From a virus (taxonomy: Duplodnaviria > Heunggongvirae > Uroviricota > Caudoviricetes), in IMG/VR virus record IMGVR_UViG_2531839265_000001, positions 1 through 25,289 of that record: a stretch of DNA of 25,289 nt; one strand, given 5' to 3'. Of the stretch, positions 10,258 through 13,530 are shown piece by piece. The position numbers and the translations under genes are program-made. The notes under the pieces are model-generated. The model was not told where the DNA came from. It made no database searches and saw nothing but the letters and a program-made list of their open reading frames with translations. Each line of letters starts with the position of its first letter. The stretch's first letter is position 1.

Positions 10258-10548
10258 TTACCCGAGCACGCCGGTTGCAAAGGCGTGATCAAGAAAACGA
10301 AAAATTAAATCAACCTGGGAACCATGCTTTTCTTCGAACGCCAGCGGATCCGCATGAAGTTCGTTGTGATGTTTCCGGCACAGCGGTAGCATGAAAATAT
10401 CGTGGGATTTTGTTCCCATTCCGCCCTGACCATGACCAATCAGGTGATGGGGATCGTCGGCTGGCTTACCACAACACGCGCACGGCTGTGTCTTTACCCA
10501 GCGCGTGTATTTCTCGTTAACCCAGCGGCGACGTTTAGGTCGTTTCAT
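10258..10548 (-). CDS. small Cys/His-rich nin-region protein (YbcO/DUF1364-like putative nuclease)
   Basis: MKRPKRRRWVNEKYTRWVKTQPCACCGKPADDPHHLIGHGQGGMGTKSHDIFMLPLCRKHHNELH; position immediately upstream of rusA as ybcO in DLP12. ATG at 10548 chosen over the track GTG at 10590. Confidence 0.5.
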   Translation of the reverse strand: MKRPKRRRWVNEKYTRWVKTQPCACCGKPADDPHHLIGHGQGGMGTKSHDIFMLPLCRKHHNELHADPLAFEEKHGSQVDLIFRFLDHAFATGVLG

Positions 10549-10583
10549 GAAAGATTCCGGAGACTCCGGATCAACAGCGATGC

Positions 10584-11234
10584 TTACCACCGTCTTTTCT
10601 TGTGGCGGGATTTGTTGCTGGTGGGCGTGAGGTGGTAGCGCAATATTTTTGTGCGCTGCTTCAGTATACTGGTGGCTGTCTGCTCTCCCGGTATGATGTC
10701 GCTTTCACGGTACACAGAGCGGATTTTTTCCGCACGTAACCCCAGAGAACGACGCAATACTGTCTCAGGTAATGCGTCCACCACCTGATTGCAGACTGCC
10801 CACCAGGATAATTCAGCCAGCGATAATTCCCGCTCCTGCGCACCGCTTATTGCGTAGCGGATGACGTCAATCATCCATGCTGACAGGTTTTGATGAGCAA
10901 GTTGCTCGAGTGATTCGGATGTCTGGTCACGCAGCTGGTTGTCGCAGTGCCAGCACAACACCATCGCTCCGGTACCATAACGATGTATGACGATTTCACT
11001 GTGATGGTAGTCACTATGAGGCCACTGGCAGGATTTAACATGACGCAGGAGCCAGTCAGACAGTGCACCAGTGCCACCGGCAGCACGAATTACCCGCTCA
11101 TTGCTGAAAAATGGCAGCAATGATTTGTCTTCCGCCAGCGGCTGGCGAATGGCAGGAACAACTCCGGACGGCAGACCGCGCATGCTTTTCGGTTCCGGCT
11201 CCACCAGTACTCGAGGGTTATGAAATACCTGCAT
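10584..11234 (-). CDS. hypothetical nin-region protein (about 216 aa from MQVFHNPRV...)
   Basis: Track ORF 10584..11432; the first about 66 codons are low-complexity, so a start near 11234 is more plausible. May be the C-terminal part of a larger gene with 11308..11586. Confidence 0.35.
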   Translation of the reverse strand: MQVFHNPRVLVEPEPKSMRGLPSGVVPAIRQPLAEDKSLLPFFSNERVIRAAGGTGALSDWLLRHVKSCQWPHSDYHHSEIVIHRYGTGAMVLCWHCDNQLRDQTSESLEQLAHQNLSAWMIDVIRYAISGAQERELSLAELSWWAVCNQVVDALPETVLRRSLGLRAEKIRSVYRESDIIPGEQTATSILKQRTKILRYHLTPTSNKSRHKKRRW

Positions 11235-11307
11235 GGATTCACGACCAGGCTTAAGGACCACCAGCCCGAGTTCCGGTACCGGAACAGGTCGAAGCAATAC
11301 CCGCACG

Positions 11308-11586
11308 TTACCTCCAGATCCGTTGCTGGAATGTGCGGGACGGACGCGGTGGGCGTTCAGAGTAAGGCAGTCTGACTGAGATGATCCAGTGTCGGAAGTC
11401 GAGGCTGAGGTCTTTCTGAAACTCGTAACCACGTCTGCGGTAGTTCTGAATCAGCCATTCGGCCTGTTCTTCAGTGCATGGATCATGCTGGAACCAGTCA
11501 GATTTGAATGCATGAGAACGCCGCCCGCGCCTGCTGGCAAGGACGGCGAGATTATCAGAATTGTGTGATCTGGAATTTTGCGCCAT
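11308..11586 (-). CDS. hypothetical protein (92 aa), possibly the N-terminal part of the downstream gene
   Basis: Track ORF MAQNSRSHNSDNLAVLASRRGRRSHAFKSDWFQHDPCTEEQAEWLIQNYRRRGYEFQ...; overlaps 10584..11432 in another frame. Confidence 0.3.
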   Translation of the reverse strand: MAQNSRSHNSDNLAVLASRRGRRSHAFKSDWFQHDPCTEEQAEWLIQNYRRRGYEFQKDLSLDFRHWIISVRLPYSERPPRPSRTFQQRIWR

Positions 11587-11652
11587 CGGCTTTCTCCGGT
11601 GGCACAGTGTTACTCAGCAGGGGTTCAGCCCTGCGCTGAATTGTAGATGAAT

Positions 11653-11916
11653 TCACTCATCTTCAAAAGCAGAAAAACCAGCCTTAAGCCCAGCTTCTTT
11701 CAGAGACTGCAATGATGTGACAAATTCATTTTCACGCAAAATAAAACCATCCGTCACCAATCCATCCACAAAGTAAATTAACGCCGCCCCACTCTTCCTT
11801 TGTTGAGACTGTAAACATTTAATACGGCAGTGGCTGACAATAGCGCCATTCTCAACGCGCACAGTATAGAGGCCATCTTCACTAAAAATTTCAACCAATT
11901 CTTCGATTTTCATCAA
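11653..11916 (-). CDS. hypothetical small protein (87 aa), in the position of rem in Qin
   Basis: Track ORF MMKIEELVEIFSEDGLYTVRVENGAIVSHCRIK...; no recognised family. Confidence 0.4.
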   Translation of the reverse strand: MMKIEELVEIFSEDGLYTVRVENGAIVSHCRIKCLQSQQRKSGAALIYFVDGLVTDGFILRENEFVTSLQSLKEAGLKAGFSAFEDE

Positions 11917-12104
11917 CAGAATCCTTCCAGATAAATAGCACTCCCCTGCTCGGGGTCCATCCCTCTTCTCCCTGCGCGCTACTTAAGAGCCTCGATTCTA
12001 GCCGTGAAGACATGCCAATCAACAGCAATAAGCCACCTGAATAACAGAATCAGACAACCACATCAGTGCAACCAGATGCATCAAGCTCACCGAAAATAAA
12101 CAAC

Positions 12105-12128
12105 AAAAAACCCGCCGAAGCGGGTTTT
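12105..12128 (-). terminator. rho-independent terminator after the Doc-family gene
   Basis: A6, CCCGC-CGAA-GCGGG hairpin, T-run; strongest on the minus strand. Confidence 0.65.
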
Positions 12129-12142
12129 CATTAGAAGCACCT

Positions 12143-12628
12143 TTAGTTTTGCTGTTCTATTTTAAGCTTGATAGTTTCATACAGAACAATAGTTGCGCCT
12201 GTTTTACATAATTCCCGGCTGTCATATGCACGAGACCAATAACACAACCAGTTCTCGAGATCTTCTCGAGTATAGGTTTTGCAGGCCAGTCCCTCTGCCA
12301 TTTCCACGATTTCATCGCCTGGTGCTGTTAACTCATAGCCATTCAACAACAAGAAGACGTAACCAGCCATCATAGCTGTTCGTTTGTTCGCATTAGCAAA
12401 CGGATGATTCTGAATCAGACTTTCAATCAATACCGATGCCAGTACAAACATGTCATTAGTCTGTTCATACCATCGAACCATGCTGGGACGGGCCTGAGAA
12501 GAACTTAAATTATCAACACTCAGCACACCTACAGGTTCATCTGGTGTTTGAAGCTCAATTAAAAGGCGATTGATTTCAGTAAGATCATCAACCGAAAGAT
12601 AGTGCACTCCTTCAACAATCTCAGCCAT
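12143..12628 (-). CDS. Doc/Fic-family toxin (death-on-curing type)
   Basis: Contains HPFANANKRTAMMAG, the Doc-type H-x-F-x-(D/N)-(A/G)-N-K-R motif. ATG at 12628 (track start 12637 is a TTG). Confidence 0.8.
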   Translation of the reverse strand: MAEIVEGVHYLSVDDLTEINRLLIELQTPDEPVGVLSVDNLSSSQARPSMVRWYEQTNDMFVLASVLIESLIQNHPFANANKRTAMMAGYVFLLLNGYELTAPGDEIVEMAEGLACKTYTREDLENWLCYWSRAYDSRELCKTGATIVLYETIKLKIEQQN

Positions 12629-12646
12629 AGAGCACAATACCCATTA

Positions 12647-12826
12647 TTACACTTTTGAAAGTTCTTCCATTGCCTTCTCGTAACGAGAAAAACCGAAATC
12701 GAAAGCATTTTTCACCTGCTCACGATGTGTGCAATTTTCATCAATAGCCGGGCGCGGAGCTGCCACAACGCTTTTATCGCGAGGGGGAATAGTCAATCGC
12801 GGGTGTTTTTTTAGTGCGTAGCTCAT
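12647..12826 (-). CDS. putative antitoxin partner of the Doc-family toxin (59 aa)
   Basis: ATG at 12826, stop 17 nt before the toxin start: MSYALKKHPRLTIPPRDKSVVAAPRPAIDENCTHREQVKNAFDFGFSRYEKAMEELSKV. Not recognisably Phd/YefM from sequence; below the ORF-track cut-off. Confidence 0.45.
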   Translation of the reverse strand: MSYALKKHPRLTIPPRDKSVVAAPRPAIDENCTHREQVKNAFDFGFSRYEKAMEELSKV

Positions 12827-13037
12827 TGGGTGTACCCTTACTTCTCCGTCCTGTTCTTTAACAAAAAATCAAGTCAATACAAAATTAGTCAGGCTAATGT
12901 TGTTAGCATAGCCTAATACCAATCGTATTCACAACCACAGTACGTGAAAAAATCCGCCAAAGCGGGTTAAGTGCGGGTGCGTTGAGGATGCCGACACATC
13001 AGAGGTGGCGGGAGATTACTCTCCCGCCTGGTCACTC

Positions 13038-13193
13038 TTACTTCTCAGATTCGTAGTCCACGAAGACAGCAACCTCCGTCTGGCCGGTTCGGATTCGTAC
13101 CTCGCAGAGGTCTTTCCTCGTTACCAGTGCCGTCACTATGACGGTTAAACAGATGACGATCAGGGCGATTAACATCGCCTTTTGCTGCTTCAT
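13038..13193 (-). CDS. hok: Hok/Gef-family type I toxin (51 aa)
   Basis: MKQQKAMLIALIVICLTVIVTALVTRKDLCEVRIRTGQTEVAVFVDYESEK has the Hok TM segment and CE.R motif. AGGAG RBS before the ATG at 13193. A 9-bp perfect hairpin at 13002-13023 follows the stop. Confidence 0.9.
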   Translation of the reverse strand: MKQQKAMLIALIVICLTVIVTALVTRKDLCEVRIRTGQTEVAVFVDYESEK

Positions 13194-13530
13194 AGCCTGC
13201 TTCTCCTTGCCTTTCGACACGTAAGAGGCTAACCTACATTTGTGAGACGTAGATTGGGCCTCAGATTAATGTTAAGCGTCCTGCAAGACGCGTAATGTTA
13301 ACTGGGGCTTTTCTCTGTTTGCCTTACAGTGGCATGCCCGAGGCAGACAGCCTCAAGCACCCGCAGCAATCTTACCGACACCGATAAGAAAACGCTATTT
13401 TTATTGCCAGCACCATCTATCCAGGCTAATTTATCTGCGTCAGAACGGCGCAATGCGCTCGCCTGAGATACGTTTACTTGCCATGGTAACAACAGATAAC
13501 GGCAATTGTTGTTTCTGTTTTGTTTCCTTC

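Follow-up and report, generated by a model that had tools for sequence, protein, structure and literature searches.

The sequence considered here is a stretch of 25,289 nucleotides (nt) from a virus of the class Caudoviricetes (IMG/VR virus record IMGVR_UViG_2531839265_000001, positions 1 to 25,289), referred to below in its full length as the window. Approximately 60% of the window is matched by Escherichia coli prophages, at approximately 92% identity. The subject of this report is a pair of adjacent genes in the early-right (nin to Q) part of this mosaic lambdoid prophage, which encode a Doc-family toxin and, upstream of it, a protein of 59 amino acids (aa) that is the candidate antitoxin. 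All elements of the locus are situated on the minus strand, with the Sok antisense RNA opposite to them. Read along the transcript, the locus comprises in turn hok/sok (13038-13362), a hairpin at 12947-12968, the 59-aa open reading frame (ORF), the Doc gene, a second hairpin at 12106-12129, and then rem, ydfU (DUF968), rusA and the Q homologues. An initial annotation, made from the sequence alone, had named hok, the Doc-type gene, the 59-aa ORF and a terminator in this region, and each of these was found on the minus strand close to the position assigned to it. The features are collected in Table 1.

Table 1. Features of the Doc locus and of the adjacent hok/sok locus. Positions are those of the window.
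Feature	Position	Strand	Basis
Intrinsic terminator of the antitoxin-Doc operon	12106-12129	-	Terminator scan: 10-bp stem, 5 GC pairs, T run
Doc-family (Fic fold) toxin gene, 161 aa	12143-12628	-	PF02661, TIGR01550, phrog_577
Catalytic motif HPFANANKR, Doc residues 75-83	12380-12406	-	Sequence reading
59-aa antitoxin candidate ORF	12647-12826	-	phrog_2208, dN/dS, pairing with Doc
C-terminal helix of the 59-aa protein, candidate Phd-C element	12656-12727	-	AlphaFold2, hhalign
Conserved N-terminal peptide of the 59-aa protein, residues 1-19	12770-12826	-	Column entropy
Candidate extended -10 element TGGTATTAG of the cassette	12913-12921	-	Cross-lineage conservation
hok terminator (second hairpin copy), upstream edge of the 842-bp cassette	12947-12968	-	Direct repeat D1, Qin junction alignment
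hok coding sequence, 51 aa	13038-13193	-	PF01848
mok leader frame, in frame with hok	13194-13250	-	Alignment to annotated mokW of 933W
Sok antisense RNA	13242-13312	+	Homology to annotated sokW
hok mRNA leader/sok region	13188-13362	-	Rfam RF01794

The Doc-family toxin and the gene upstream of it

The product of the larger gene matched the Fic family of Pfam (PF02661; E value 8e-12, 46.3 bits against a cut-off of 24), the NCBIfam model TIGR01550, DOC_P1, over model positions 2-122 of 122 (E value 7.7e-37, 126.2 bits against a cut-off of 38.65) and phrog_577, 'Doc-like toxin' (E value 2e-50); PADLOC returned weak matches to candidate-system models. The nearest solved chain is that of the Enterococcus faecalis Doc (9vzc_A; E value 1.8e-13, residues 6-116). 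The motif HPFANANKR fits the pattern HxFx(D/N)(A/G)NKR, as defined in PMC13034048, and has K in place of the G found in AMP-transferring Fic proteins. Its residues H75, F77, N79, N81, K82 and R83 are invariant among 43 members of the subfamily. With the family models matched and the motif intact, the Doc-family toxin recognized from this motif in the initial annotation was confirmed. Translation from the ATG at 12628 yields the 161-aa product, and an alternative TTG start at 12637 would add three codons.

The toxin is approximately 20-30 aa longer at its C-terminus than the Docs of P1 and E. faecalis. The number of residues that follow the catalytic motif is 71-82 in nearly all Docs of the subfamily (59 in one unique pair), as compared with 49-64 in 43 of 46 other Docs, and the subfamily tail includes a conserved WLxxWxRxYDxRxLC segment.

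The 59-aa ORF ends 18 nt before the ATG of the Doc gene. Its product had no match in Pfam, in NCBIfam (even at E values up to 1), in PADLOC or in the Protein Data Bank (PDB), and the YefM-fold DNA-binding and dimerization domain (PF02604) was not found in it in the Pfam and NCBIfam searches to an E value of 1. The sole database match was phrog_2208, a family of 'unknown function'. A profile search of the PDB with the 59-aa family returned ribosomal protein S25 (E value 0.21) and a RES-domain protein (E value 1.1), which were judged to be chance matches. The ratio of non-synonymous to synonymous substitution rates (dN/dS) was 0.05-0.18 in comparisons with 11 diverged alleles for which dS was unsaturated, and the ORF is therefore a real gene under purifying selection.

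A profile search of a protein collection clustered at 90% identity retrieved 139 clusters of the family to which the 59-aa protein belongs. When 1.84 billion representatives were searched exhaustively with HMMER, only 39 hits were obtained at E values of 1e-3 or lower, counted as representatives at 50% identity. Members are 38-97 aa long and have the same two conserved blocks, with no further recognizable domain, two long outliers aside; those two longer HMMER hits consist of multiple stretches and look spurious. The family has apparently not been described before, as no description of it was found in the literature on Doc in the nin region or in Gifsy prophages, or in that on Doc antitoxins lacking a DNA-binding domain.

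It was of interest to determine how regularly the two genes occur together. For this purpose, loci were considered in which the Doc is at least 55% identical to that of the window. A full-length homologue of the 59-aa protein was situated directly upstream of Doc in all 91 such loci, at distances of 9-62 nt (mostly 9-33 nt). These loci span Escherichia, Serratia, Providencia, Morganella, Kluyvera, Rosenbergiella, viral contigs of the Salmonella type and Pseudomonas phages. One distant Doc (37% identity) is partnered instead by a classical Phd/YefM protein. Among 5426 complete E. coli genomes, 125 (approximately 2%) carry the cassette, always on the chromosome; both genes are present in every genome that carries either of them, and the cassette adjoins hok in 120 of the 125. 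It was essentially absent from plasmids, the one hit, to a record of 4 Mb, evidently being to a chromosome. The arrangement, two adjacent and co-oriented genes with the antitoxin first, kept as a pair, is that of a type II toxin-antitoxin (TA) system.

The intergenic gap is 18 nt in the window and 3 nt in several lineages. The two ORFs of the window are in the same frame, with two TAA stop codons between them (12629-12649), and in Providencia and Pseudomonas one stop codon and 3 nt separate the genes. The shared frame is probably a consequence of the tight spacing alone.

Architecture of the 59-aa protein

The structure of the 59-aa protein was predicted with AlphaFold2 from the family alignment. 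The model contains one helix, at residues 34-57, for which the predicted local distance difference test score (pLDDT) exceeds 90, and residues 1-33 were predicted to be without secondary structure (pLDDT 60-71). These results, together with the failure to match PF02604, agree with the earlier view that this partner is unlike Phd/YefM, and the comparison with antitoxin families that had been proposed as a check returned no Pfam or NCBIfam match.

Conservation was assessed as mean column entropy over 119 representatives of the family and is bimodal along the protein. The N-terminal block (residues 1-19; 0.97 bits), in which A4, K7, R10, I13, P14, R16, D17 and K18 are near-invariant, and the helix (residues 37-59; 0.89 bits), with Q37, A41, F42, F46, R48, Y49, E50, A52, L56 and K58, are constrained, and the linker between them (residues 20-36; 1.99 bits) is variable.

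The helix has the core motif F-x-R-Y-E-K-A-M-E-E-L-S-K. It was compared with the C-termini of proteins encoded upstream of Doc genes of the wider clade, which were taken from viral contigs. By Pfam, the partners of these related Docs include PhdYeFM, MazE/AbrB, Panacea and ParD-like (ribbon-helix-helix) proteins, plus several small proteins without a Pfam domain. Whatever their N-terminal domain, they share a C-terminal motif, ...[KR][YFH]xKA[FMY][EK]EL[AS]K, as exemplified by ...NKAVYEELAK, ...HKKAFKKLAE and ...KRYAKSFEELAK, and the 59-aa family fits it with ...SRYEKAMEELSKV.

This resemblance was examined by profile-profile comparison. When the family was aligned by hhalign with a pooled profile of the C-terminal 28 residues from 27 Doc partners of the YefM and AbrB types, residues 35-59 aligned in register to the C-terminus (P 9.2e-6, score 24.5). 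None of 120 shuffled controls (60 column-shuffled templates and 60 shuffled queries; mean score approximately 8, maxima 12.9 and 20.4) reached that score. Full-length alignments of the YefM class alone (P 4.6e-4) and of the AbrB class alone (P 1.3e-3) gave the same register. In the reverse direction, a hidden Markov model (HMM) trained solely on partners with DNA-binding domains placed the 59-aa family next below its own training classes in a ranking of 3147 ORFs, the matches always being at the C-termini.

The C-terminal segment of the E. faecalis Phd is the part bound to Doc in structure 9VZC (PMC13034048). The same segment has been named Phd-C and is sufficient for neutralization when stabilized, a SUMO fusion of it neutralizing a Doc toxin (PMC10440598). 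The 59-aa protein is therefore read here as a putative Phd-type antitoxin of truncated architecture, consisting of Phd-C only and lacking the DNA-binding domain. The initial annotation had raised the possibility of an uncharacterized antitoxin type, to be abandoned if the protein matched a known family such as Phd/YefM. That proposal stands only in part: the protein is not a known Phd/YefM, as the defining domain is absent, but it is not a new type of antitoxin either, since its helix aligns in register with Phd-C segments, a neutralizing element already known.

Small partners of this sort were also observed outside the 59-aa family. In several IMG/VR loci of the set (L196, L199, L222, L223, L166/L212 and L230), Doc genes are preceded by genes for 46-67-aa proteins that have no Pfam domain and whose C-termini are of the ...KKLAEK, ...RLSDK or ...KLSKN type. 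Domain-less Doc antitoxins may thus be a recurrent and undescribed theme in phages.

The N-terminal block is as constrained as the helix. It is probably extended in conformation. Its core is R-L-x-I-P-P-R-D-K-S, of which IPxRDK is kept in the most distant members of the family, and it co-occurs with the C-terminal extension that is specific to the partnered Doc subfamily. The non-coding sequence upstream of the pair varies from lineage to lineage and contains no conserved operator, which argues that the N-terminal block has the conserved toxin, and not DNA, as its binding partner; it may dock on the C-terminal extension of Doc. An elaboration of this idea, in which the 59-aa protein would be a two-pronged linear inhibitor, its helix anchored in the Phd groove and its N-terminal peptide acting as a second element matched to the Doc extension, is improbable. 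Possible roles for the peptide also include those of a pseudosubstrate in the Doc active site and of a sensor or degron that frees Doc upon phage infection. With regard to the former, the peptide I13-PPRD-K18-S19-xV-A22 is spaced like I377-REGG-R382-T383-VG-A386 of the EF-Tu loop targeted by Doc. This similarity was noticed post hoc, an HMM of the N-terminal block gave no hit to EF-Tu, and the pseudosubstrate idea is speculative.

Cassette boundaries, insertion sites and the adjacent hok/sok locus

The two genes lie within an 842-bp cassette that is situated 3' of hok and has a copy of the hok terminator hairpin on either side. The hairpins constitute a 22-nt direct repeat, D1 (12105-12126 and 12947-12968), whose copies are 91% identical and 842 nt apart. 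Comparison with the Qin prophage of E. coli K-12 locates the edges of the cassette. Positions 10258-11987 of the window correspond to ydfU and rem of Qin, positions 12092-12126 to the single terminator of hokD, of which they cover the left side and the hairpin, and positions 12948-13207 to the same hairpin and hokD. Both E. coli flanks of the cassette are thus homologous to Qin sequence that exists without it.

The initial annotation had inferred a module swap at the position occupied by relBE in Qin. This was not upheld, as relBE lies 5' of hokD in K-12 and the cassette lies 3' of a hok gene whose leader is intact. Indeed, K-12 and the window are homologous from a point just 14 nt ahead of the hok ATG, so that relBE takes up the place expected of the hok leader. 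A terminator belonging to the pair had also been proposed; it is present (12106-12129), but it is one of the two copies of the hok hairpin and so is not unique to the pair.

In other E. coli prophages (those at loci L037, L038 and L040, among others), the hok hairpin is followed by a second allele of the cassette that has an unrelated leader, and the antitoxins of those cassettes are 88-100% identical to that of the window. Because different cassette alleles follow the same hairpin, the hairpin looks like a recombination junction for the exchange of modules.

In prophages of Salmonella, Providencia and Pseudomonas, the cassette occupies other moron sites. No hok gene is nearby, and the cassette is therefore independent of hok. 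In Salmonella and Providencia the site is bordered on one side by tail chaperone or tube genes and on the other by the tape-measure gene, and in the Pseudomonas prophages the cassette is next to the integrase gene. At none of the sites (the nin region after hok, the tail module and the integrase) is a third gene conserved beside the pair. In the loci with the tail-module site (L259-L266, including L263:3860-5392), the cassette adjoins a SNIPE/T5orf172 nuclease gene in one case and KilA-N genes in others; the site looks like a hotspot for defence or moron genes.

The upstream regions of six divergent lineages were compared. The only invariant block upstream of the region of the ribosome-binding site is the -10-like TnGTATTA, which in the window makes TGGTATTAG a candidate extended -10 promoter of the cassette. 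No operator or operator palindrome is conserved between these upstream regions. Together with the lack of a DNA-binding domain in the 59-aa protein, this argues against autorepression by an antitoxin-toxin complex, so far as can be judged from sequence. An Rfam search of positions 12000-13500 at a permissive threshold returned only sok, with sub-threshold matches on the terminator hairpins, and the predicted RNA fold of the cassette leader was unexceptional (z = -1.55).

The neighbouring hok coding sequence matched the Pfam family HOK_GEF (PF01848; E value 7e-23, 80.4 bits against a cut-off of 22) and has 92-93% nucleotide identity to hokW of phage 933W and to hokD of K-12. A sok-like region upstream of hok, which the initial annotation had suggested looking for, was found by two routes. 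The Rfam model 'sok' (RF01794, 157 positions) gave a full-length match of 112.5 bits, the gathering score being 59. The position of Sok was obtained by carrying the sokW misc_RNA coordinates of AF125520 over through a gap-free alignment. The Rfam match is on the hok-sense strand, but the annotated SokW of 933W falls at 13242-13312 on the other strand, so the strand reported by Rfam is not that of Sok. A promoter-like sequence, TTGCCT-17-TAACCT, was read at 13207-13235 on the plus strand.

The locus thus has, as do hokW-sokW of 933W and Sp5, a full hokW-type leader and Sok region, unlike hokD (relF) of K-12 Qin, in which the whole leader is absent and relBE is in its place. It differs from hokW-sokW in the start codon of mok. 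Translation of hok requires a mok reading frame with a start codon. The corresponding position, 13248-13250, is ATG in 44 of 48 related hok loci, including the hokW of 933W and Sp5 that has been studied by experiment, and reads ACG in the window only. The first possible in-frame start is a GTG at 13220, 30 nt downstream. From this reading of the leader, hok may be translationally silent, or dependent on that GTG.

Two further features of the window may be mentioned. The ydfU-like DUF968 gene (10258-11432) is frameshifted near 10647-10650, so that the K-12 and TUM1881 proteins align with it in one frame over residues 1-220 and in another over residues 220-349; either this is a pseudogene or there is a sequencing error, and the split gene would fit a prophage in decay. 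Three tRNA genes (Gly-TCC, Thr-TGT and Met-CAT) are clustered at 5610-5919 on the minus strand, in the part of the late region that lies downstream of the gene for the antiterminator Q.

Interpretation and comparison with known systems

Taken together, the data argue that positions 12106-12968 constitute a self-contained, mobile two-gene TA cassette of type II, composed of a Doc kinase and a 59-aa antitoxin that has only the Phd-C element. A probability of roughly 78% is assigned to this interpretation. The cassette would be transcribed from the minus strand, probably from its own promoter at TGGTATTAG, with transcription ending at 12106-12129. Translation of the antitoxin and of Doc is probably coupled, because the intergenic gap is so short. 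Doc toxins phosphorylate EF-Tu (at Thr382/383) and arrest growth. By homology with the P1 protein, the Doc of the window would likewise phosphorylate EF-Tu and so stop translation. Since the amphipathic C-terminal helix of the 59-aa protein is the putative counterpart of the Phd-C element that binds the Doc groove, it would be expected to occupy that groove and to neutralize the toxin by direct binding, with the N-terminal block adding a second contact. As this antitoxin has no domain for DNA binding, the balance between toxin and antitoxin would not rely on conditional cooperativity. The analysis itself establishes which genes are present and to which families they belong, the constancy of their pairing, the purifying selection, the helix as a prediction together with its match between profiles, and the way in which the cassette is inserted. 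The toxicity of Doc, its EF-Tu target, the physical binding of the two proteins, the promoter and the biological role are inferred, and that the antitoxin is unstable is suggested solely by the predicted disorder of residues 1-33.

A number of observations weigh against this interpretation. The likeness of the helix to Phd-C is evident at the profile-profile level and not in pairwise comparison. The hhalign probabilities were 83% for the pooled profile and 33% and 18% for the single classes, and the individual HMM E values of family members ranged from 0.015 to 5 in the set of 3147 ORFs, that of the window's own sequence being approximately 1. When 2309 ORFs of related loci were searched with the family's own HMM, only family members were retrieved and no AbrB-, YefM- or Panacea-type partners; the homology of the helix therefore rests on the profile-profile comparison and on the reverse HMM search. 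The AlphaFold2 model of Doc alone (from 43 close relatives; mean pLDDT 47.6) was too poor for use. A strict -35/-10 consensus scan called no promoter on the minus strand, the promoter given above being deduced from conservation only. Finally, the strong conservation of the N-terminal peptide is not accounted for by the inhibition expected of the helix.

Other explanations of the locus were weighed. That the pair is an ordinary Phd/YefM-Doc module, the 59-aa protein being a diverged but complete Phd with a YefM-type domain and autoregulating its operon, would fit a small gene upstream of doc and a Phd-like C-terminal helix. Very little probability can be given to it, because no PF02604 or NCBIfam antitoxin match was obtained even at E values up to 1 and because merely 33 residues, rich in proline and predicted to be without secondary structure, precede the helix. 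The YefM-type partners in related loci are 80-91 aa long and have an NQNFS...PRY domain that is absent from the 59-aa protein, and the only conserved non-coding block is the -10-like one, with no conserved operator palindrome. The proposal that the 59-aa protein is not an antitoxin at all, but a leader peptide, a chaperone or an unrelated phage protein, with Doc being non-toxic or otherwise controlled, draws on the weakness of the individual sequence similarities to Phd C-termini and on the conserved N-terminal peptide, which has no assigned role. It is improbable, although the least so of the alternatives considered here. The co-occurrence of the two genes is absolute across gammaproteobacterial lineages and unrelated insertion sites, the ORF is under strong purifying selection, and the helix aligns in register with the C-termini of Doc partners of two independent classes. 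Moreover, the catalytic motif of Doc is invariant, and an inhibitor would therefore be needed.

A three-component system like paaR2-paaA2-parE2, in which a separate, neighbouring regulator would control the pair, might be suspected from the palindromes that some lineages have over the putative promoter (e.g. AATGTAACTTAACTTACATT in Providencia). The absence of a conserved third gene argues against a tripartite system of this kind: E. coli has hok and rem beside the pair, Salmonella and Providencia have tail or KilA-N genes there, and Pseudomonas has the integrase gene. Furthermore, both flanks of the cassette in E. coli are homologous to cassette-free Qin sequence. This explanation is quite improbable, ranking between the other two. 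A mobile Doc cassette with a Phd-C-only antitoxin is thus preferred. It is a conserved variant of Phd-Doc that is unannotated but recognizable, and the principle on which it would operate is known.

The identification has some practical value. In all of the E. coli records listed, out of the 125 genomes with the cassette, the NCBI labels are 'Doc toxin' and 'hypothetical protein'; annotation thus names Doc and leaves its partner without a function in the records examined, including those of enterohaemorrhagic strains such as HUSEC2011. Naming the 59-aa family as a Doc antitoxin would fill this gap for prophages of Escherichia, Salmonella, Providencia, Serratia and Pseudomonas. The family would also be a natural example of an idea so far shown mainly by engineering, namely that the C-terminal helix of Phd alone neutralizes and that the DNA-binding domain is dispensable, and it raises the question of how a Doc module stays balanced without autoregulation. 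As the cassette is found at known hotspots for moron and defence genes, it is a reasonable candidate for a function in prophage retention or in the exclusion of other phages, one of which is its likely biological role.

Comparison with characterized systems places the cassette near several of them. It shares with Phd-Doc of P1 (3K33, 3DD7, 3KH2) a phage-borne location, a Fic-fold toxin with the HxFx(D/N)(A/G)NKR motif and an antitoxin gene upstream, and the C-terminal helix of the 59-aa protein would be expected to lie in the Doc groove, as residues 52-73 of the P1 Phd do in 3K33. The P1 Doc, however, is only 126 aa long, matches the Doc of the window weakly (E value 1e-4, residues 53-115) and is without the tail of approximately 20-30 aa. 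The P1 Phd (73 aa) has an N-terminal DNA-binding domain of the YefM fold and is autoregulated by conditional cooperativity, whereas the 59-aa protein is without that domain. The E. faecalis system (9VZC; PMC13034048) provides the closest solved Doc, whose motif likewise takes the form HxFxNANKR. Of its Phd, only the C-terminal helix (residues 52-79) is seen bound to the toxin (PMC13034048). That Phd (EFPhd) also has a beta-sheet N-terminal domain that binds a palindromic operator, which the 59-aa protein lacks, and the 59-aa family profile retrieved no chain of 9VZC even at E values up to 10.

The class I Fic antitoxins VbhA and YhfG are similar in being helical inhibitors of approximately 55-62 aa encoded upstream of a Fic-fold enzyme. 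Their [S/T]xxxE[G/N] motif reorients ATP in AMP-transferring Fic proteins. This motif is absent from the 59-aa sequence, in which T33-HR-E36 and S47-RY-E50 are wrongly spaced, and the toxin of the window has the Doc-type NKR signature, not NGR. PaaA2-ParE2 of the cryptic prophage CP-933P in E. coli O157:H7 (PMC8630535) is likewise carried by a lambdoid prophage, and its antitoxin, too, is small, for the most part unfolded and devoid of a DNA-binding domain, so that classical autoregulation is not possible. Its ParE toxin and its neutralizing element are unrelated to those described here, and it has a regulator gene of its own, paaR2, whereas no third gene is conserved beside the Doc cassette.

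A parallel in concept is PanA(Phd-C)-Doc of Corynebacterium doosanense (NetFlax; PMC10440598), in which a linear C-terminal element suffices to neutralize Doc irrespective of what it is joined to; Panacea-type partners with the same C-terminal motif are situated upstream of Docs related to that of the window. The isolated Phd-C needed a SUMO tag in vivo (PMC10440598). Unlike PanA, the 59-aa protein has nothing folded attached to its helix and has instead the conserved 19-residue N-terminal peptide. This peptide and the toxin extension that matches it form the only feature of the cassette for which there is no precedent.

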